From contig JAFXDO010000037.1 in NCBI GenBank assembly GCA_017563195.1, positions 1-53,327 on the forward strand: a DNA stretch of 53,327 nucleotides. Reading direction: 5' to 3'. This document shows, piece by piece, positions 26,972-36,703 of the stretch (positions within the stretch are counted from its first letter, which is position 1; each line of letters opens with the position of its first letter). This DNA is from Clostridia bacterium (GTDB lineage: Bacteria; Bacillota; Clostridia; Oscillospirales; CAG-382). The position numbers and the translations under genes were made by a program. The notes beneath the pieces are model-generated. The model was not told the origin of the DNA, searched no databases, and saw only the letters and a list, made by a program, of their open reading frames with translations.

Positions 26972-28000
26972 TTAAAGCTTTTCTGCCAATTCGAGAACTA
27001 ATTTTTCGGTCTTTTCCCAGCCGAGGCAGGGGTCGGTAATCGACTTACCGAAGACGTGCTCGCCGATCTTCTGGGCGCCGTCCTCGATATAGCTTTCGAT
27101 CATCAAGCCCTTTACGAGCTTTTTGACGTCGTTGTTATACTTACGGCTTTCGACTATCTCGTTGGATATTCTTATCTGCTCGAGGTAGCGCTTGCCGGAG
27201 TTATTGTGGTTGGTGTCAACGATTACGCTCGGGTTTGCAAGTCCCGATGCAAGGTAAAGTTCGTTAAGCTTTACGAGGTCCTCATAGTGATAGTTGGAAA
27301 CGCTCTTGCCTGCAAAGTCGACGTAGCCGCGAAGGATCGCGTGTGCATAAGGGTTGCCTGCGCTCTTTACCTCCCAGCCGCGGTAGATAAAGGTATGGCT
27401 CGCGTGTGCGGCACGGATGGAATTCATCATTACGGTAAGATCGCCGCCCGTGGGGTTCTTCATACCGACGGGAACGTCGAGGCCGCTTGCGGTAAGGCGG
27501 TGCTGCTGGTCCTCAGCCGATCTTGCACCGACTGCAACGTATGCGAGCAGGTCGGAGAGATAGCGGTGGTTTTCAGGATAAAGCATTTCGTCCGCACAAG
27601 TGAAGCCGTAGTCCTTTAGCGCGCTCATATGGAGCTCGCGGATAGCAACGATACCCTTGTACATATCGGGCTTTTCATCGGGGTCGGGCTGATGGAGCAT
27701 ACCCTTGTAGCCCTCGCCCGTGGTGCGGGGCTTGTTTGTATAGATTCGGGGGATTATGAATATTTTGTCCTCTACCTTATCCTGAAGCAGACGGAGTCTC
27801 GAGATATATTCGAGCACCGGCTCGCGGTGGTCTGCCGAGCAGGGACCGATAACGAGAATAAATTTATCGGACTCACCCTTGAATATCGCCTGTATCTCCT
27901 CATCACGCGCGTCCTTTGTCGCCTTCATTTCGGGACTGACGGGGTAATCCTGCTTAACCTGCTGAGGAATAGGCAGCTTGCGGAAGAATTCCATGTTCAT
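26972..28000 (-). CDS. aroF: 3-deoxy-7-phosphoheptulonate (DAHP) synthase, class I
   Basis: IGPCS, KPRTTG, VGARS, GMKN, SITDPCLGW. Confidence 0.92.
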   Translation of the reverse strand: MNMEFFRKLPIPQQVKQDYPVSPEMKATKDARDEEIQAIFKGESDKFILVIGPCSADHREPVLEYISRLRLLQDKVEDKIFIIPRIYTNKPRTTGEGYKGMLHQPDPDEKPDMYKGIVAIRELHMSALKDYGFTCADEMLYPENHRYLSDLLAYVAVGARSAEDQQHRLTASGLDVPVGMKNPTGGDLTVMMNSIRAAHASHTFIYRGWEVKSAGNPYAHAILRGYVDFAGKSVSNYHYEDLVKLNELYLASGLANPSVIVDTNHNNSGKRYLEQIRISNEIVESRKYNNDVKKLVKGLMIESYIEDGAQKIGEHVFGKSITDPCLGWEKTEKLVLELAEKL

Positions 28001-28020
28001 GATTAGTGCCTCTTTTTTGC

Positions 28021-28884
28021 TTATTTCTTTTCTTTATTGAATTTGCGGCGGCGTGCTGTGGAAAGTCGCATCATATCGCGCATTTCCTCGCGGTCTCCGT
28101 TTTTGATAGTGTCATAAAGCTTATCGAAGGATCTGCGGTAATTATCCATCTCCTCGAGAAGCGTTTCTCTGTTTGCCAAGAACAGCTCCGACCACATTTC
28201 GTCGTTGATGTTCGCAATTCGGGTAAGATCCCTGAACGAGTCGCCGGTATAGCGCTCAAGGTCGGGCTCATCGCATGCGCACATAAGCGAAACCGCGATG
28301 CAGTGGGTAAGCTGAGACAGAAACGCGATCATTTTGTCGTGCTTCTTGGGGCTGAGCACAGATATCTCACGGAAGCCGAGCGTCTCGCCCAGATCGCCGC
28401 AAAGCTCTACCGTATCGAGAGAATTTTGCTCGGTCGGGACAACAATGTAGTTGGCGTTTTTGAATATCGACTCGTCGGCGAATTCCACACCCGCGGTCTC
28501 CTTGCCCGCCATAGGGTGAGCAGCTATAAACTCTACCCCCTGCGGAAGCATGGACTGTATCTCGTAAACTATGCATTCCTTTACGCCGGTAACGTCGGTG
28601 ATAACCGTCTTCGGTGCGATAAGATGCCCGTACTGCTTTATCCAATCGACGAAAATATGAGGATACAGGGCGAAGACGATTATATCCGCTTCTTTTATGA
28701 GCGACTCGTCAACGAACGAGGAGCCCTTGGTTATCAGATCGTGCTCGACAGCGTAGTCGATGGTCGACTGCTTTCTGGTGATCGCGGTCACGTAATATCC
28801 CTGCCGCGTAAGGCTTTGAGCATAGCTACCGCCCAAAAGACCGAGGCCAACGATCAATATTTTTTTAGATTTATCAAGTTTCAT
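28021..28884 (-). CDS. tyrA: Prephenate dehydrogenase
   Basis: GLGLLGGS, HPMAGKE, HDKMIAFLSQLTH, SFRDLTRIA. Confidence 0.93.
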   Translation of the reverse strand: MKLDKSKKILIVGLGLLGGSYAQSLTRQGYYVTAITRKQSTIDYAVEHDLITKGSSFVDESLIKEADIIVFALYPHIFVDWIKQYGHLIAPKTVITDVTGVKECIVYEIQSMLPQGVEFIAAHPMAGKETAGVEFADESIFKNANYIVVPTEQNSLDTVELCGDLGETLGFREISVLSPKKHDKMIAFLSQLTHCIAVSLMCACDEPDLERYTGDSFRDLTRIANINDEMWSELFLANRETLLEEMDNYRRSFDKLYDTIKNGDREEMRDMMRLSTARRRKFNKEKK

Positions 28885-30092
28885 ATCCGTTCCAGCTTAA
28901 CGTTTAATTTTTCTATATCGTCAAAGAAGCCCCTATAGCTCTTTCCGCAAGCCTCGGCATCCTTGATCTCGCCGCCCGTAAGCGTGCAGAGCACGGCAAG
29001 CGACATAACTATGCGATGATCGTTATGGGCATCGAGTACTTCGGTCGGGGTCTTCAGCTCGGCGTCGCAAACGCTAACGCTGTTTTCCTTGACGATGACG
29101 GGAACACCGAATTTTGCAAGCTCAGTCGCCATTGCCTCGGCACGGTCGCTTTCTTTGATCTTAAGTCTTGCCGTGCCCGTAAACTCGGCGCCGCCCTTTG
29201 CCGAAGCCACGGCAAAAAGGATGGGTGCCAGATCGGGGCAATCGGACAGATCGAAGTGTCTCTCCCCTCTTTCCATCGCCGCGAAAATATCCTTATAAAC
29301 CCTGTCGCCCTGATGGGTCGAGTCGGAGATGCCGTTAACCGTGACGTCGCCGCCGAGGAAGTCAAGCGCCTGCAGGAACGCCGCATTCGAGCAATCACTC
29401 TCGACCGTATATTCGCTGCTTTGGTACCTTTGGTTACCGAGTATCACGAATCGATTCCCGTTGCGGGTGACCTTAATGCCAAATTCGGCTAGCGTATCAA
29501 GCGTCAGATCGACGTATGATGCGCTTTCGAACTTACCGGTGACCTCGATTATGCTGACACCGTCGAGCAGAGGGAGCGCAAAAAGCAGACCCGTTATGAA
29601 CTGGCTCGAAATATCGCCGGGAACCTTATAAATACCGCTCTTCAGCTTTCCGCATAGAGTAACGGAATTTTTGGATTTCTCAAAGAGGATGCCCTGCTCG
29701 CGGCAGATGTCCTCGTAAACTCCGAGAGGTCGCTCGAAAAGCCGTTCCGCACCGCGAAGCGTGATCCTTTTTCCGCAAAGCAGGCAAAGAGGAATCAGGA
29801 AGCGAAGCGTGCTTCCGCTTTCGACGCAGTCGAGCTCGGTATCGGTTTTCGGATCAAACGGGTTGAAATTGCCTATCTTGACCTTCAAGCCGTGAACGCA
29901 GATGTCGGCTCCGAGATTGCAAAGACAATTAAGCGTCGCACCGACGTCCCCCGACTGATGTCCGCCGAAGACGTTATAAAGCGTACTTCCGCCCGAGAGT
30001 GCTCCGCAGATCAGGGCGCGGTGCGACAGACTTTTTGAGGGCGGCGCGGTTATTTCACCGCTTGCCCTCGAGGGGTATATTTTGACGTTCAT
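28881..30092 (-). CDS. aroA: EPSP synthase
   Basis: PPSKSLSHR, ESGSTLRF, SSQFITGLL, KESDR, HNDHRI. Start at MNVK. Confidence 0.95.
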   Translation of the reverse strand: MNVKIYPSRASGEITAPPSKSLSHRALICGALSGGSTLYNVFGGHQSGDVGATLNCLCNLGADICVHGLKVKIGNFNPFDPKTDTELDCVESGSTLRFLIPLCLLCGKRITLRGAERLFERPLGVYEDICREQGILFEKSKNSVTLCGKLKSGIYKVPGDISSQFITGLLFALPLLDGVSIIEVTGKFESASYVDLTLDTLAEFGIKVTRNGNRFVILGNQRYQSSEYTVESDCSNAAFLQALDFLGGDVTVNGISDSTHQGDRVYKDIFAAMERGERHFDLSDCPDLAPILFAVASAKGGAEFTGTARLKIKESDRAEAMATELAKFGVPVIVKENSVSVCDAELKTPTEVLDAHNDHRIVMSLAVLCTLTGGEIKDAEACGKSYRGFFDDIEKLNVKLERI

Positions 30093-30094
30093 AA

Positions 30095-30520
30095 TTACTC
30101 TCCAAGCAGAAAATCGATAGCCTCGGTATATCCGTCGAAGCCATGTCCGCATATGGTTTTTTGACAGTAAGCGCGAACGTAGCTTATCTGTCTGAAATCC
30201 TCGCGCTTGGACATGTCGGAGATATGTACCTCGACTGTCGGAATGCTGACCGACTTAAGCGCATCGAGGATCGCGACGCTTGTGTGAGTATACGCCGCGG
30301 GGTTGATGACAATGCCGTCGGTATTACCGTAGGCAGACTGTATCTTATCGACGATATCGCCCTCGTGGTTCGATTGAAAGAGCTCGATTTCGATGCCTCT
30401 GTCGTTGGCGTGTGCGCGTATTTTATCGCAAAGATCGGCATAGGTGGAATTGCCGTATACCGACGGCTCGCGAATGCCGAGCATATTGATGTTCGGCCCG
30501 TTAATTACAAGAATTTTCAT
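30095..30520 (-). CDS. aroQ: Type II 3-dehydroquinate dehydratase
   Basis: NGPNINMLG.REP..YG, QSNHEG, NPAAYTHTS, EVHIS. Confidence 0.95.
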   Translation of the reverse strand: MKILVINGPNINMLGIREPSVYGNSTYADLCDKIRAHANDRGIEIELFQSNHEGDIVDKIQSAYGNTDGIVINPAAYTHTSVAILDALKSVSIPTVEVHISDMSKREDFRQISYVRAYCQKTICGHGFDGYTEAIDFLLGE

Positions 30521-31754
30521 ATTTAAGATCCTCCAGGATCGCATTTGCATTTAACTGCTTACCGTCGACTGCGACTATTCGCTTATCACAGCAGGAGCAA
30601 TATATTTCGTAGCGTTCGTCATAACGCTTCTTAAGGCTTTCGTACGTCGAAGAAAGCGGTCTGTCGCTCGTGATGCAAAGATGCTCTATATCACGGTCAA
30701 GGAAATAAATCCTGCCGTTCGAACGAAGATTATCGATATTTTCTTTTCTCAGAATCGCACCGCCGCCGGTGGAAATAACTCGAGACTGAAGCTTCGAAAC
30801 GTCTTTAATTACCTCGGACTCGATATCGCGGAACGCAGGCTCGCCCGATTCGGTGATGATCTCGTTGGGAGTTCTTCCGGTACGTGCTTGGATCTCCTTG
30901 TCGGTATCGACGAATTCAAAGCCGAGTGCCTCGGCAATGAGCCTGCCGGTGCTTGTTTTTCCACAGCCCGGCATTCCGACGATAACGACGTTTTGCTTCG
31001 CAGCGAGCATATCGCGGAATATTTCGTCGACACGCTCCTTTTCGACCGTCTTATCGACAAAAAGCTCAGCCGCATACGCCGCCTGTGCGACGAGCATATA
31101 CAGCCCACCGACCGCCTTGACGCCTTTATTCAGCGCATCTGTAACAAGCTTACTTCTCAACGGATTGTACACGGCGTCGACAACAGCCTCAAGTCTCGGG
31201 TAATCGTTCACGTCAACCGCCGCAACGCCTGTTTCGGGAAACATTCCGCAGGGCGTCGTGTTTATTATGACCTCGGCATCGGAATGTAACGTTCGTGCAT
31301 TTTCATACGTTATGCAACCGTCCCTACCGCTGCGCGAAACGCGATAAGCGTCTACACAGCCAAGCTCACGTGCAACGAACATAGCGGTCTTTGAGGTACC
31401 ACCGCTGCCGAGAACAAGAAACTTTTTACCCGAAAGCTCGATCCCCTCACGTCTTATCATCGCGAGCATTCCCATGAAGTCGGTATTGTAGCCGTAAAGC
31501 TTGCCTCCGCGTTTCACAACGGTGTTTACAGCGCCTATCTCCAACGCCTTGGGGTTGACATAATCAAGAAACGGAATGACCGCCTCCTTGTAAGGTATCG
31601 TCACGTTTATCGCATCGAACTCGCGTGTTTTCAGGAATTCATCAAGAGAGTCGCGACTTATCGCCTTCAGCTCGTAATCGTAGCCGAAGAGTCTTTTGTG
31701 AATATCCGCAGAAAAGCTGTGACCTACTCTCTCGGCTATTAATCCGTATTTCAT
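30501..31754 (-). CDS. aroE: Shikimate dehydrogenase-shikimate kinase fusion
   Basis: N-terminal HSFS, NVTIPYK, GAVNT, NTD, LGSGG. C-terminal GMPGCGKT, FRDIE, STGGG, RPL. Confidence 0.9.
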   Translation of the reverse strand: MKYGLIAERVGHSFSADIHKRLFGYDYELKAISRDSLDEFLKTREFDAINVTIPYKEAVIPFLDYVNPKALEIGAVNTVVKRGGKLYGYNTDFMGMLAMIRREGIELSGKKFLVLGSGGTSKTAMFVARELGCVDAYRVSRSGRDGCITYENARTLHSDAEVIINTTPCGMFPETGVAAVDVNDYPRLEAVVDAVYNPLRSKLVTDALNKGVKAVGGLYMLVAQAAYAAELFVDKTVEKERVDEIFRDMLAAKQNVVIVGMPGCGKTSTGRLIAEALGFEFVDTDKEIQARTGRTPNEIITESGEPAFRDIESEVIKDVSKLQSRVISTGGGAILRKENIDNLRSNGRIYFLDRDIEHLCITSDRPLSSTYESLKKRYDERYEIYCSCCDKRIVAVDGKQLNANAILEDLKYENSCN

Positions 31755-32842
31755 TTTGCCAACCAGTCCGTTCCGTATTTACCCGAAAGCGCGTCGGCAA
31801 TTACCAAGGCGGTGACGCAATCGACGACTATACGTGCACGGTGTACGATGCAAGGATCGTGTCTTCCCGCAGCAGAAAGCGTCGCGCTTTCTATGTTTAC
31901 ATAATCAATTGTTTCCTGTTCCTTGGATATGGTGGGAGTGGGCTTTACTGCAGATCTGAAAACTATGGGCATTCCGTTCGTGATGCCGCCGTTTATGCCG
32001 CCTGCATTGTTGGTCTTGGTGCAAACCCTGCCGGACTCGATACAGAACGCATCGTTTGCCTCGGAGCCGCGCATTCTTGCAAATTCAAAGCCCGCGCCGA
32101 ATTCTATTCCCTTGATAGCCGGAATCGAGAAGACCGCGTGGGATATCATACCCTCGAGAGTGTCGAACCAGGGCTCGCCGATGCCTGCGTCAAGACCTAC
32201 GACCGCGGTTTCGAGCACTCCGCCGACTGAGTCGCCTTCCGACCTTGCATCAAGTATCCTTGCTTTCATTGCGTCTGCCTTTTCGGTATCGAGCACGGCA
32301 AATTCCATGCCGCTCAACACCTTAATATCATCGCAAATATCGCCAAAATCTCTATCACTCACGCCCGCACATTCCTTTACGTGTGTGCCGATAAAAATGC
32401 CTTTTCTGTTCAGCGCGGGGATCAATATGCCGCCTGCGGCTACAAGCGCTGCGGTTATCCTGCCGCTGAAATGTCCGCCGCCGCGATAATCCTCGTACCC
32501 GCTATATCTGACGTGTGCGGTATAGTCTGCATGAGAAGGACGTGCAAGGCGAGCCATAGCGCCGTAATCGGCAGATCGAGTGTCCTTGTTGGGTATCGTT
32601 ATGCATATCGGTGTGCCGGTGGTACGTCCGTTGAACACGCCGCTGAGTATTTCGAATTTATCCTCTTCTCTTCTCGCCGTCGAGATCGCGCCGGCGGGTC
32701 TGCGAAGAGAAAGCAGTCTTGATATCTCGTCTTCGTTCACCTCAAGCCCCGAGGCGATGCCGTCGATAACGCAGCCTATGGCATTACCGTGGCTTTCGCC
32801 GAACAGTGTGAGGGTTACGTTATTACCGAAAGTATTCTTCAT
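31751..32842 (-). CDS. aroC: Chorismate synthase
   Basis: GESHG, RPSHAD, GGGHFSGR, NNAGGINGG, GRHDPC. Confidence 0.96.
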   Translation of the reverse strand: MKNTFGNNVTLTLFGESHGNAIGCVIDGIASGLEVNEDEISRLLSLRRPAGAISTARREEDKFEILSGVFNGRTTGTPICITIPNKDTRSADYGAMARLARPSHADYTAHVRYSGYEDYRGGGHFSGRITAALVAAGGILIPALNRKGIFIGTHVKECAGVSDRDFGDICDDIKVLSGMEFAVLDTEKADAMKARILDARSEGDSVGGVLETAVVGLDAGIGEPWFDTLEGMISHAVFSIPAIKGIEFGAGFEFARMRGSEANDAFCIESGRVCTKTNNAGGINGGITNGMPIVFRSAVKPTPTISKEQETIDYVNIESATLSAAGRHDPCIVHRARIVVDCVTALVIADALSGKYGTDWLAK

Positions 32843-33855
32843 CAGCGAATAACCTCTCTGATCGTTTTTTCGTATTCATCGAACGCCATTTTTCGGAATT
32901 CAAAGCTGCCGATTTCGTTAACGTAAACTACCGTAATATCCTTACCCGTAAGCTTTTTATCGTGTGAGCAGGCGTCTATGAGCGCGTCGACGCTTTCGCC
33001 GCCAAGCTCGTAAGGAAGCTCGAGCTTCTTAAGCACGGGAATAAGCCTTTCCCTGACAGCCTGCGAGCACATAGGCACCATACCTATTGCGACGCATTCG
33101 CCGTGGTAGTAGTTTTCCATGCCGTTGGCAGTCTCTACAGCGTGTGCAAGAGTGTGTCCGAAATTCAACACTCTGCGGAGGCCCGATTCCTTTTCATCCT
33201 CCTCTACAACGCTTTTCTTAATCATCAGCGAGCGCTCGATGATCGTATCGATCGCTTCGTCAACGTCAGCATTTTCAAATATATCAAAAAGAGTCGCGTC
33301 GCTAGTCAACGACATCTTCAGCGCCTCGGAAAGACCGTTGGAGACCTGACGCTTCGGAAGCGTTTTAAGCGTTTCGGGGTCGATTATGACCTTCTTCGGC
33401 GGATAAAACGCACCGACTATATTTTTTATGCCCATAAAATCAACAGCGGTCTTACCGCCGATGGAGGAATCCACCTGCGATAACAGCGTCGTGGGGATAT
33501 TTATAAAATCTATTCCGCGCATATACGCACTTGCGGTGAAGCCCGCAAGGTCTCCGACAACACCGCCGCCGACCGCTATTACTCTGTCGGAGCGGGTAAA
33601 GCCGTATTCGACGAGCTTAGAAAGCAGATGCTTAAAGCTATCGAGAGTTTTTGATGCCTCACCCTGCTCTATCGTAACGGTGTATGCGCTTTCGCATTTC
33701 TCGGCAACCGACTCTGCATACCGAGACGGAACCCCGCTGTCGGTGACGACCAGCGTTTTACCCGAAAGGCAGAGGTACTCTTCTATTTTGCCGATTGCGC
33801 CTCTTTCGAGGATTATATCGTATCCGCCCGTCGAGGTTTTTACCGGAATTATCAT
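32842..33855 (-). CDS. aroB: 3-dehydroquinate synthase
   Basis: GGGVVGDLAGF, PTTLLSQVDSSIGGKT, LNFGHT, HGECVAIG. Confidence 0.96.
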   Translation of the reverse strand: MIIPVKTSTGGYDIILERGAIGKIEEYLCLSGKTLVVTDSGVPSRYAESVAEKCESAYTVTIEQGEASKTLDSFKHLLSKLVEYGFTRSDRVIAVGGGVVGDLAGFTASAYMRGIDFINIPTTLLSQVDSSIGGKTAVDFMGIKNIVGAFYPPKKVIIDPETLKTLPKRQVSNGLSEALKMSLTSDATLFDIFENADVDEAIDTIIERSLMIKKSVVEEDEKESGLRRVLNFGHTLAHAVETANGMENYYHGECVAIGMVPMCSQAVRERLIPVLKKLELPYELGGESVDALIDACSHDKKLTGKDITVVYVNEIGSFEFRKMAFDEYEKTIREVIR

Positions 33856-33873: not shown

Positions 33874-34962
33874 CTAAATTTTGATTTCCTTTTCGTAGCT
33901 TGCGATTATCTTTACGCTGCTGCAGCAGGAGCTGAGATCGGCAAGCATCGCCTTTCCCTCGAACGTTCCGAGGTTACCGTCGCCCTCTGCATAGAAGTAA
34001 TATTCCCAGTTAAGATCCTTTGTGGGACGGCTCTTAAGCGCACGGAGATTAAAGCCGTGCTCGCCGATGACCGAAACGGCACGACCGAGCGAGCCTGCCG
34101 TATTGTTAACCGTAAAGAGCATAATGAAGTGCTTGTCGTTTGCGGCGAAATCGCGGTGATTACGTGAAAATACGGCGAATCTCGTGGTGTTGTTTCCGCT
34201 TTCGTTGATTCTGCCCTCGAGCTTGACGAGCCCGAACTTCTCCGCAGCCTCCTCACTTCCGATCGCGGCAAGATTCTTCCTCCCCGATTCGGCAACCACC
34301 TTTGCGGCAACCGCGGTATTGACCGCCTCGACCGGCTCAAAGCCGTGCTTTTCAATATATTGGGCACACTGACCCAGAGCCTGAGGATGAGAAATGACCT
34401 GCTCGATATCTTCGATCGTGCTGCCCTTCGGTCCGAGAAGATTTTGAACTATTTCCGCTTCATAAACTCCATTTATGTACAAAGCACCGAAGAAGGCGAG
34501 ATCAAGCACCTTGCCGACGTCTCCGTTGAAGCTGTTTTCTACGGGAAGCAGGGCGCAATCGCATTCACCCGAAAGCGCCGCATTATATGCCGCCGCGAAA
34601 TCGGGATATCCTATGCAAGTGGCATCGGGGAAAATCTTCTCCGCCGCAATGTTAGCAAACGCGCCGACGACGCCGCTGTATGCAACTCGCATACCGTCGA
34701 GAAGTCTATGCTGATATCGCTTGGAAACCTCAATGTTATTTCTCAGAAAATCCACGTAATAGGAACGGTAATCGTCGTTTTCGACTATTTCGGAGTTCTT
34801 TGCGATTATATCCGCCTCTCTGCCGAGGTCGTCAACGGGAAGCCCGTGCTCCTTTTTGTAATGCGCAACCATTCTTACCGCGTCCATACGCTGCTCAAAC
34901 AGCTTCGCCATTTCCCTATCGGTCGCGTTGATAATATTCCGTGCCTTATCCAGTTCGGTCAT
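33874..34962 (-). CDS. pheA: Chorismate mutase / prephenate dehydratase (P-protein) with ACT domain
   Basis: CM domain R..I...D....LF..R, PVENS..G, SHPQALGQC, NTTRF, SRP...WEYYF. Confidence 0.92.
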   Translation of the reverse strand: MTELDKARNIINATDREMAKLFEQRMDAVRMVAHYKKEHGLPVDDLGREADIIAKNSEIVENDDYRSYYVDFLRNNIEVSKRYQHRLLDGMRVAYSGVVGAFANIAAEKIFPDATCIGYPDFAAAYNAALSGECDCALLPVENSFNGDVGKVLDLAFFGALYINGVYEAEIVQNLLGPKGSTIEDIEQVISHPQALGQCAQYIEKHGFEPVEAVNTAVAAKVVAESGRKNLAAIGSEEAAEKFGLVKLEGRINESGNNTTRFAVFSRNHRDFAANDKHFIMLFTVNNTAGSLGRAVSVIGEHGFNLRALKSRPTKDLNWEYYFYAEGDGNLGTFEGKAMLADLSSCCSSVKIIASYEKEIKI

Positions 34963-34976
34963 AATGCTCTCCTTCA

Positions 34977-35033
34977 AAATAAAAAATCCGCCATCATATG
35001 CTTCAAAAGAGCATAGCGGATGCGGACTGCCGT
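34977..35033 (-). terminator. Attenuator terminator of the aro/phe/tyr operon
   Basis: Minus strand agtccgcatccgctatgct-cttttga-agcatatgatggcggat followed by a U-run just before the pheA RBS. Confidence 0.75.
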
Positions 35034-35049
35034 TTGTAGTGAACCTTGC

Positions 35050-35112
35050 TTACGCGTTCAGAGCAGACGAGCAGTCCTTTATAAAATAATAAAAGTATGC
35101 GTTAAAGAACAT
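35050..35112 (-). CDS. Phe/Tyr-rich leader peptide MFFNAYFYYFIKDCSSALNA
   Basis: AAAGGAG RBS. 4 Phe and 3 Tyr among the first 10 codons. Lies between the promoter and the terminator upstream of pheA. Confidence 0.85.
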   Translation of the reverse strand: MFFNAYFYYFIKDCSSALNA

Positions 35113-35148
35113 CTCGTGTACTCCTTTCGTGAAAACTAAGATGCGTTC

Positions 35149-35177
35149 ATAATAGTACTTTTTTTGCAATTTGTCAA
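35149..35177 (-). promoter_or_regulatory. Sigma-A promoter of the aromatic amino acid operon
   Basis: TTGACA-17 bp-TATTAT. Confidence 0.75.
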
Positions 35178-35347
35178 TAGTAAATTGCAATTTTATGAGC
35201 GTTTATTCCATAATAATCCTATTATTTTCATAATTTTTGCAATTTTGTAACCTCCAATACACCATTTAAGTCCTTACGCTCTTGATTTTTATGCAGATAT
35301 ATAGTATAATCGATATAAGAATTCCTTTAAGAAAGCGAGGCAGTAAG

Positions 35348-36703
35348 ATGAAGTATTCCGACATCACTCCTTATATTGCCGAAATGGCGGAGATCTCAAA
35401 CCGCAACAATCATATAGAGCCTTCAATGTACGTCCATCACTGCGTAAACAAGGGCTTGCGCGATATGAACGGCAACGGCGTCGTTACCGGACTTACCGAA
35501 ATATCAAAGATCAAGGCAAAGGCCACCGACGAAAACGGCGCGGTCATCCCCTGCGACGGTCAGCTTTGCTACCGCGGTATCGACGTGCGCGATCTTGTCA
35601 AGGGCTTCCAATCCGATGACCGTTTCGGATTTGAGGAGACGGTTTATCTACTTCTGTTTTCCGAGCTCCCCAACAAGGAACAGCTTGCGCGCTTTTCCAA
35701 GGAACTGACAAAATACCGCAGTCTTCCGAAATCGTTCGTACGCGATATGATACTCAAGGCACCCGGCAAGGATATGATGAATATCCTTTCGAGATGTGTG
35801 CTTGCGCTTTACGCTTACGACGATAATCCCGACGACATTTCGATACCCAACGTGCTGAGACAGAGCATGCAGCTCATTGCCATGTTCCCGCTTCTTGCCG
35901 TCTACGGTTATCAGTCCTACAGGCACTATCACCGCGGAAAGAGCCTTCACATACGTCTCCCGAAGCCTCAGTTCTCGACTGCCGAAAACCTTTTACATAT
36001 CCTTCGTAAGGACGGCACCTTTACCGACCTTGAGGCTAAGATACTGGACCTTGCAATGGTGCTTCATGCAGAGCACGGCGGCGGTAACAACTCGACCTTT
36101 ACCACCCACGTCGTCACCTCCTCGGGAACCGACACGTACTCATCGGTTGCTGCGGCGCTCGGCTCGCTCAAGGGACCGCGTCACGGCGGCGCAAACATCA
36201 AGGTCGTTAAGATGTTCGAGGATATGAAAAAGAGCATCAACGTCAAGAAGAAGGGCGAGATCGAGGATTACCTGAAGAAGCTTCTCGACAAGCAGGCGTT
36301 TGACAACGCGGGTCTTATCTACGGTATGGGACACGCAGTATATTCTCTGTCCGACCCCAGATCCGATATTCTTAAGGAATGTGCGAAGATGCTTTCCAAG
36401 GAAAAGGGCCGCGAGGAGGAATACGCGCTTTACGAAACTGTAGCCAAGATGGCACCCGAGCTTATCGCAGAAAAGCGCAAGATGTATAAGGGTGTCAGCG
36501 CGAACGTCGACTTTTACTCGGGACTTATTTATAAGATGCTCAACCTACCGAACGAGCTTTACACCCCGATCTTCGCAGTATCGCGCATCGCAGGCTGGTC
36601 GGCGCACCGCATCGAGGAGATACAGAACGCGGGCAAGATAATAAGACCCGCGTATATCAGCGTCATCGACGACAGAAAGTATATTCCGCTGAACGAAAGA
36701 TAA
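35348..36703 (+). CDS. gltA: Citrate synthase
   Basis: LHAEHGGGNNSTF, GPRHGGAN, GMGHAVY, NVDFYSG, SRIAGWSAH. Confidence 0.9.
   Translation: MKYSDITPYIAEMAEISNRNNHIEPSMYVHHCVNKGLRDMNGNGVVTGLTEISKIKAKATDENGAVIPCDGQLCYRGIDVRDLVKGFQSDDRFGFEETVYLLLFSELPNKEQLARFSKELTKYRSLPKSFVRDMILKAPGKDMMNILSRCVLALYAYDDNPDDISIPNVLRQSMQLIAMFPLLAVYGYQSYRHYHRGKSLHIRLPKPQFSTAENLLHILRKDGTFTDLEAKILDLAMVLHAEHGGGNNSTFTTHVVTSSGTDTYSSVAAALGSLKGPRHGGANIKVVKMFEDMKKSINVKKKGEIEDYLKKLLDKQAFDNAGLIYGMGHAVYSLSDPRSDILKECAKMLSKEKGREEEYALYETVAKMAPELIAEKRKMYKGVSANVDFYSGLIYKMLNLPNELYTPIFAVSRIAGWSAHRIEEIQNAGKIIRPAYISVIDDRKYIPLNER

Follow-up and report, generated by a model that had tools for sequence, protein, structure and literature searches.

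A probable Phe/Tyr leader-peptide attenuator preceding pheA in a Clostridia operon for aromatic amino acid synthesis

We analysed a window of 53,327 nucleotides (nt), the whole stretch of DNA from position 1 to 53,327 of contig JAFXDO010000037.1 in the Clostridia bacterium assembly GCA_017563195.1. Within it, a leader at 34963..35177 precedes pheA and seven further genes for the synthesis of phenylalanine (Phe) and tyrosine (Tyr). All leader and operon coordinates given here are on the minus strand. An original prediction, made from the letters alone, had placed in this leader a promoter, a ribosome-binding site, a 20-codon upstream open reading frame (uORF), a hairpin and a U-run, and every one of these parts is present. 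The sigma-70-type promoter (35149..35177) is near-consensus, matching at 11 of 12 positions in a promoter scan, and consists of a -35 box TTGACA at 35177-35172, a 17-nt spacer and a -10 box TATTAT at 35154-35149; TTGACA and a -10 box are also visible at the matching place in the upstream sequences of relatives. The uORF, MFFNAYFYYFIKDCSSALNA (35050..35112), comprises 20 codons followed by the stop codon TAA at 35052-35050. Its Shine-Dalgarno (SD) sequence, AAAGGAG (35121..35127), is followed 8 nt downstream by the ATG at 35112, and (A)AAGGAG is kept in all 17 further same-genus loci and in a 21-sequence alignment. Seven of the nine codons from 2 to 10 (35083..35109) specify Phe or Tyr (4 Phe and 3 Tyr) and none specifies tryptophan (Trp), exactly as had been proposed.

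Two hairpins lie beyond the Phe/Tyr run. The first, P1 (35024..35077), is the proposed antiterminator; it is 54 nt long, and its outer helix pairs GGACTGC (35077-35071) with GCAGTCC (35030-35024), the 3' strand ending in GCAGUCC. The 5' strand of P1 coincides with uORF codons 12-19, and the stop codon lies in the apical part of the hairpin. Folded alone, P1 reaches -21.6 kcal/mol (z -4.0), a stability equalled by none of 200 shuffled sequences. The second hairpin, the terminator T (UCCGC...GCGGA; 34987..35026), reaches -14.9 kcal/mol when folded alone (z -2.6; 3 of 200 shuffles equally stable) and is directly adjoined by the U-run U6-A-U4 (34976..34986), which is kept in the alignments of relatives. 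P1 and T have 3 nt in common, the first 3 nt of T (35026-35024) being the last 3 of P1. As a bulged hairpin, T was not listed by a simple terminator scan. Hairpin and U-run together end 14 nt upstream of the pheA ATG, and they do not serve an upstream gene, because the next gene beyond the leader, for citrate synthase, is read divergently.

The gene that follows, pheA (33874..34975), has the SD sequence GAAGGAGAG at 34975-34967 and an ATG at 34962, and encodes a protein of 362 amino acids with chorismate mutase, prephenate dehydratase and ACT domains in Pfam. The remainder of the operon (26972..33855), assigned from the list of open reading frames (ORFs) and from Pfam, holds aroB, aroC, an aroE-aroK fusion, aroQ, aroA, tyrA and aroF, so that eight genes are tightly packed behind the leader. 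The aroQ product is a type II dehydroquinase. The last gene, aroF, encodes 3-deoxy-D-arabino-heptulosonate 7-phosphate (DAHP) synthase and is the sole DAHP_synth_1 match in the genome. The fused gene (30501-31754, minus strand) joins shikimate dehydrogenase to shikimate kinase in a single product of 417 amino acids with Shikimate_dh_N and SKI domains.

The Phe/Tyr density of the uORF is not due to chance. The 1.71-Mb genome contains 15,336 ATG-initiated ORFs that are 8-40 codons long, and this uORF alone has at least seven Phe or Tyr codons in a nine-codon window; seven other short ORFs reach six in nine, and none of those seven has an SD sequence. When the genome was searched for other leader peptides (Trp, His, Leu, Thr and others), the candidates were chance-like frames, none with a convincing terminator behind it.

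The original prediction had also seen no T-box here, and searches against Rfam agree. A scan of positions 34000-36000 with 4227 families, at expectation values (E) up to 10, gave two weak and irrelevant matches, both inside pheA, and the T-box model (RF00230) was unmatched in this interval at the same threshold. No Rfam family, T-box included, matched the loci of 19 relatives at gathering score, and 20 named loci gave nothing relevant either at gathering score or at E up to 0.01. The all-family scan, which takes in the Rfam leader families for Phe, Leu/Phe, His, Thr and Trp, matched none of them at the locus. The T-box model does match five places elsewhere in the genome, one of them above the Rfam cut-off; since these five lie on other contigs and none at this locus, the host uses T-boxes, but not at the pheA leader.

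We then compared the leader with those of relatives, which are uncultured metagenome-assembled genomes (MAGs) labelled Acutalibacteraceae, Oscillospiraceae, Clostridia or Eubacteriales, many of them from ruminant guts and others from other animal guts. A PheA search of the genus gave matches at E up to 1e-90 in 27 of 61 genomes. In all 19 same-genus genomes with PheA at least 65% identical, the host included, a uORF of 18-23 codons with SD sequence, ATG and Phe/Tyr run lies directly upstream of pheA. The eight genomes with PheA 48-53% identical have no such uORF directly before pheA. Two of those eight carry a related leader (..FYFYYFKKGCP..) about 1.25 kb upstream of pheA, as do four other members of the family. 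There the leader precedes a DAHP-synthase gene that itself stands before pheA, an arrangement confirmed with Pfam for one locus of each group (L053 and L024). In a wider sample of the family, PheA matched at E up to 1e-30 in 90 of 101 genomes; among the best 30 loci, which were inspected, the short leader occurs in 8, a long form described below in 9 and an aroF-first arrangement in 3, and none was seen in 10. The uORF adjoins pheA in 19 of 80 named public loci. Ten of the other 61 were inspected, and in each of the ten coding sequence runs up to pheA, which is not the first gene; three of those upstream coding ends were confirmed with Pfam as 3' ends of aminotransferase or DAHP-synthase genes, and these 61 loci are uninformative on leaders farther upstream.

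A covariance model (R1) built from 28 leaders (alignment A3) matches one place in the host genome. Across the order it matches 9 of the 151 genomes sampled, spread over 6 families, a count that is a lower bound, given the narrow model and strict filters. The eight foreign matches all show promoter, SD sequence and Phe/Tyr uORF, seven with an ATG start and one without ATG, where a GTG start is possible. Among the seven checked with Pfam, the next gene encodes DAHP synthase in 2, PheA in 1 and a class I/II aminotransferase in 4. The conservation of Phe/Tyr-rich uORFs in related genomes, which the original prediction had named as a check, is borne out by 19 of 19 same-genus genomes and by six families of the order. 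We also observed, across 14 loci, that one leader family heads operons with different first genes, and that the host's own genus holds both pheA-first and aroF-first arrangements. As aroF is the last gene in the host, gene order has changed and the leader has nonetheless kept its place at the 5' end.

The pattern of identity follows the proposed parts. In pairwise comparisons, region by region, among the 19 same-genus genomes, identity is 0.90 in the block encoding YFYYF, 0.83 in the 5' strand of P1 and 0.87 in the 5' arm of T. It is 0.29 in the P1 loop, 0.41 in the T loop and 0.29 from the U-run to pheA; within pheA itself, third codon positions stand at 0.47 and first and second positions at 0.85. 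Across genera and families the uORF, the Phe/Tyr run, P1 and the terminator are kept, and loops and flanks drift. All 33 short leaders that we compared have 2-6 Phe and 2-5 Tyr codons and no Trp codon, and the N-terminal part of the peptide otherwise varies freely. Both hairpins also carry compensatory changes. On the 21-sequence alignment (A2), 82% of cells in P1 pair and 7 pairs are changed on both sides, a result equalled in 4 of 500 shuffles; in the lower stem of T, in the register that uses the UCC common to P1, 90.5% of cells pair and 5 cells are doubly changed (1 of 500 shuffles). The sequences in this alignment are related, and the shuffle counts are not to be read as probabilities. 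Covariation supports both P1 and T.

We consider it very likely that the leader is a ribosome-mediated transcription attenuator of the eight-gene operon, one that reads the supply of charged tRNA-Phe, tRNA-Tyr or both. The original prediction had put forward a ribosome-mediated Phe/Tyr attenuator, and the conservation and covariation, both from sequence comparison, speak for it. The parts, their conservation and their covariation can be seen directly in the alignments; that the uORF is translated, that ribosomes stall on it, which way the switch turns and that both amino acids are sensed are predictions from them. In the proposed mechanism, transcripts would begin some 30 nt ahead of the 20-codon uORF, which is well equipped for initiation. 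Under a shortage of Phe or Tyr, the ribosome would stall within codons 2-10, and at all but the last one or two codons of the run its front edge would fall short of GGACUGC, which begins 5 nt past the run. When a hungry codon occupies the A site, the ribosome shields about 10-13 nt downstream of it, so a stall before the last one or two codons would leave the 5' strand of P1 free. P1 would then form and take up the UCC on which the bottom pairs of the terminator depend, termination would be weakened, and the operon would be transcribed. With ample supplies of both amino acids, the ribosome would move into the 5' strand of P1 and halt at the UAA in its apical part; with P1 blocked, the full terminator could fold and transcription would end at the U-run. 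Mapped onto the classical scheme, the Phe/Tyr run would be segment 1, P1 the 2:3 antiterminator and T the 3:4 hairpin, without a 1:2 helix. Neither individual folds nor the consensus structure contained a conserved helix of the 1:2 type between the Phe/Tyr run and the 5' strand of P1, and the leader would work with three strands.

The geometry that this mechanism calls for recurs throughout the set. Every one of the 33 leaders has a hairpin around the stop codon that begins 0-7 nt (mostly 5) past the Phe/Tyr run and whose 3' end reaches 2-12 nt into the 5' arm of the terminator, with the reservation that the end of the run or the terminator was mis-set for two loci (L045 and L052) in this survey. 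The overlap is 5-10 nt in eight distant members, and blocking it there reduces the terminator from between -11.8 and -27.4 kcal/mol to between -1.6 and -11.1 kcal/mol. By these folding calculations, the switch model is well supported in the more distant members. Two other pairings were considered and dropped. An antiterminator formed from the P1 loop and the terminator arm appeared in none of the constrained folds and not in the consensus fold, and GCAUA in codons 5-6, as a mimic of the 3' arm of the terminator, was found by eye in only about 9 of 21 aligned leaders.

Several observations weigh against such a switch in the copy studied here. The original prediction had held that pairing of GGACTGC with GCAGTCC would give alternative folds; the pairing stands, as the outer helix of P1, and the alternative folds stand only in part. 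P1 and T overlap here by only 3 nt. The 5' arm of the terminator contains the repeat CCGC-AU-CCGC (35011-35025, minus strand), kept in most same-genus leaders, which allows T to fold in two registers. When the overlap is blocked, T refolds in register 2 at -12.2 rather than -14.9 kcal/mol and still abuts the U-run, and the minimum-energy fold of the whole leader stretch contains P1 and register-2 T together. With the overlap blocked, a hairpin next to the U-run persists in 11 of 19 same-genus leaders (12 of 33 overall), and in the remaining same-genus leaders 2-8 unpaired nucleotides stand before the U-run. The register-2 pairs are 92.9% paired in the alignment; their covariation is low (2 cells, 124 of 500 shuffles), and only register 1 covaries. 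Judged by thermodynamics alone, the switch seems weak in this genus, and on paper it is not a clean choice between two exclusive folds. From the size of the ribosome, a stall at the last one or two codons of the run should cover the start of P1 and favour termination. The RNA polymerase of Bacillus subtilis reportedly outran ribosomes in work by Johnson et al. in 2020; if so here, attenuation timed by a ribosome would depend on pausing. Of 24 sequencing runs listed, 20 contain the stretch or part of it, and none of these 20 is on record as RNA.

It is conceivable, though less likely than not, that in this genus the antiterminator shifts T, by way of the CCGC-AU-CCGC repeat, from a well-zipped to a bulged register, giving a graded attenuator of three strands with no 1:2 helix. 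If the bulged register terminates poorly the switch would be graded, and if it terminates well there would be little regulation; folding does not choose between the two. Should such a register shift operate, it would show ribosome-timed attenuation at work on an amino acid operon of Clostridia, presumably aided by pauses of the polymerase at P1 or within the U-rich Phe/Tyr run.

Among other explanations, the one that survives best keeps the attenuator but has it sense one amino acid only, most likely Phe, with the other codons as tolerated filler. This is a real possibility, though one we think clearly less probable than not. A tested precedent counts against dual sensing: with the Phe-Tyr-Phe leader aroR of Corynebacterium, as summarised in a review (PMC11802643), Phe limitation is effective and Tyr is not. 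In our set, most same-genus leaders have Phe at codons 2-3, and ATG-TTC does not vary in any of the 21 aligned rows. Set against a single sensed amino acid, all 33 leaders keep at least two Tyr as well as at least two Phe codons, the operon contains tyrA in addition to pheA, and the most conserved block, YFYYF, mixes both residues. Dual sensing of Phe and Tyr is suggested by codon content only and cannot be assumed.

It is improbable that the terminator is instead a constitutive partial stop, or a 5' structure that stabilises the mRNA, with P1 and shifted T coexisting and the leader regulating little or nothing. The coexistence of P1 and register-2 T in the minimum-energy fold is what this explanation would predict, as is the small loss of stability, only 2.7 kcal/mol, that T of this copy suffers from a blocked overlap. 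It leaves unexplained, however, why all 33 leaders retain an in-frame Phe/Tyr run with SD sequence and ATG although the peptide otherwise drifts, why the 3' end of P1 always abuts or overlaps T, and why the overlaps of 5-10 nt in distant members destroy T.

We give still less weight to the idea that a protein or an uncharged tRNA binds the RNA in the manner of a T-box, TRAP or PyrR, the U/A-rich triplet run being its site and the ORF incidental. Such factors are common in Firmicutes, and UAC UUU UAU UAU UUU is a repetitive run whose third positions are conserved as well. Neither a T-box nor any other relevant Rfam family matched the locus at E up to 10, however, and a strong SD sequence and ATG are kept in the Phe/Tyr frame of every member, where the other two frames meet stops; the stop codon, moreover, always lies inside P1. 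Just as doubtful is an arrest peptide or functional micropeptide whose ..KDCSSALNA tail acts in the ribosomal tunnel or in trans and senses the free amino acid instead of tRNA charging. Within the genus the peptide's C-terminal half is indeed well conserved, but at the nucleotide level, third positions included, as the 5' strand of P1 with compensatory changes in relatives, and in other groups the tail is wholly different (..AMDCTAQGLAR, ..HHCGLSAFAKIG) while the pairing is kept.

The codon content of the leader can be set beside the gene content of its hosts. No match to Trp_syntA (tryptophan synthase alpha, PF00290) or to Chorismate_bind (PF00425) was found in the host MAG, which is 72.85% complete, or in five leader-carrying relatives with a completeness of 91-97%; each of the 14 control genomes yielded matches. 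The lack of Chorismate_bind matches implies that anthranilate synthase, PabB and isochorismate synthase are absent, and the host and these relatives are probably tryptophan auxotrophs. If these bacteria make no Trp, chorismate would feed Phe and Tyr only, and a Phe/Tyr leader without Trp codons would be a logical sensor for the whole pathway. The codons of the leader fit the absence of Trp-branch genes.

A classical parallel is the pheL-pheA system of Escherichia coli and other gamma-proteobacteria, in which a Phe-rich leader and terminator likewise stand directly before a chorismate mutase/prephenate dehydratase gene. The pheL leader uses Phe only, controls pheA alone and follows a four-segment scheme of 1:2, 2:3 and 3:4 pairings, whereas the leader described here mixes Phe with Tyr, precedes and would control a whole pathway, and has no 1:2 helix that we could find. 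The parts at our locus, a Phe(/Tyr) uORF, SD sequence, terminator and shikimate genes, also agree with published descriptions of candidate leaders (PMC6429828, PMC8632094). Stav et al. (2019; PMC6429828) analysed five genomes, Clostridium novyi NT among them, and the legend to their Fig. 6b describes candidate Phe/Tyr-encoding uORFs associated with shikimate genes. By that description our leader belongs to the same regulatory class, a short Phe and Tyr uORF with shikimate-pathway genes. Brewer et al. (2021; PMC8632094) described uORFC-13-1 upstream of aroF in Acholeplasma, with 24 representatives, and proposed control by ribosome speed. As described, it resembles our leader in having a promoter, ribosome-binding site, start codon, a U-run coding for Phe, an extra base-paired element and a terminator before a shikimate gene; it differs in lineage, and its description speaks of at least one Phe codon and does not mention Tyr (PMC8632094).

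Experimental work exists for aroR of Corynebacterium glutamicum, originally reported by Neshat et al. (2014) and summarised in the review cited above (PMC11802643), according to which the leader raises transcription of the aroF operon under Phe limitation. By this description aroR shares with our leader a mixed Phe/Tyr composition and a position before a DAHP-synthase operon, and ribosome stalling raises transcription there; in contrast to our leader, it belongs to an actinobacterium, has 3 regulatory codons rather than 7 and responds to Phe only. In Firmicutes, histidine leader-peptide attenuators that replace T-boxes have been predicted comparatively (Naville and Gautheret 2010, PMC2965389; Ashniev et al. 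2022, PMC9413887). These differ from ours in having His codons and standing before his genes, and they are unrelated in sequence as far as the Rfam scan shows. Ribosome-mediated attenuation in B. subtilis has been described for bmrCD (PMC4191407), and NusG-dependent pausing has been studied there (PMC6851288). Our literature search turned up no case in Clostridia of a Phe/Tyr leader tested by experiment. The novelty implied by the original prediction was overstated, as candidate Phe/Tyr uORFs with shikimate genes have been in print since 2019 and 2021 (PMC6429828, PMC8632094) and aroR has been tested in Corynebacterium (PMC11802643). The element is a pheA-first case of a published kind of leader; the principle is textbook, and the idea of a Phe/Tyr uORF is in print.

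The gain lies in coverage and detail and not in concept. An attenuator here would explain how the whole Phe/Tyr pathway is controlled from a single promoter in an uncultured lineage of gut Clostridia. For annotation pipelines, the uORF is a small and easily missed regulatory gene in a leader that no Rfam family covers. The leaders found before aroF-, pheA- or aminotransferase-first operons form a well-populated, covarying set that could become a family model. They also offer a natural test bed for ribosome-mediated attenuation in Firmicutes, and for the reading of two amino acids by one leader.

At nine loci, in three other genera of the family, the leader takes a long form and stands some 90-350 nt before pheA. 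There the frame that contains the Phe/Tyr run is open over 68-95 codons, with a GGAGG-type SD sequence and an ATG near the start of the frame, giving ORFs of about 66-84 codons. A conserved internal hairpin and a run of U6-7 stand just before the Phe/Tyr run, and this U-run is itself read as Phe (..VSFFAF..). A second hairpin with U-run precedes pheA in 7 of the 9, and our script found none for the other two (L016 and L021). The long form may be an attenuator with two checkpoints. On the upstream side of the host leader, the divergent citrate synthase gene (35282-36703, plus strand) and the leader have a promoter region of about 170 bp in common. The promoter scan listed a promoter-like site on the plus strand, TTGATT-17 nt-TATAAT (35282-35310), at or inside the listed start of the citrate synthase ORF.

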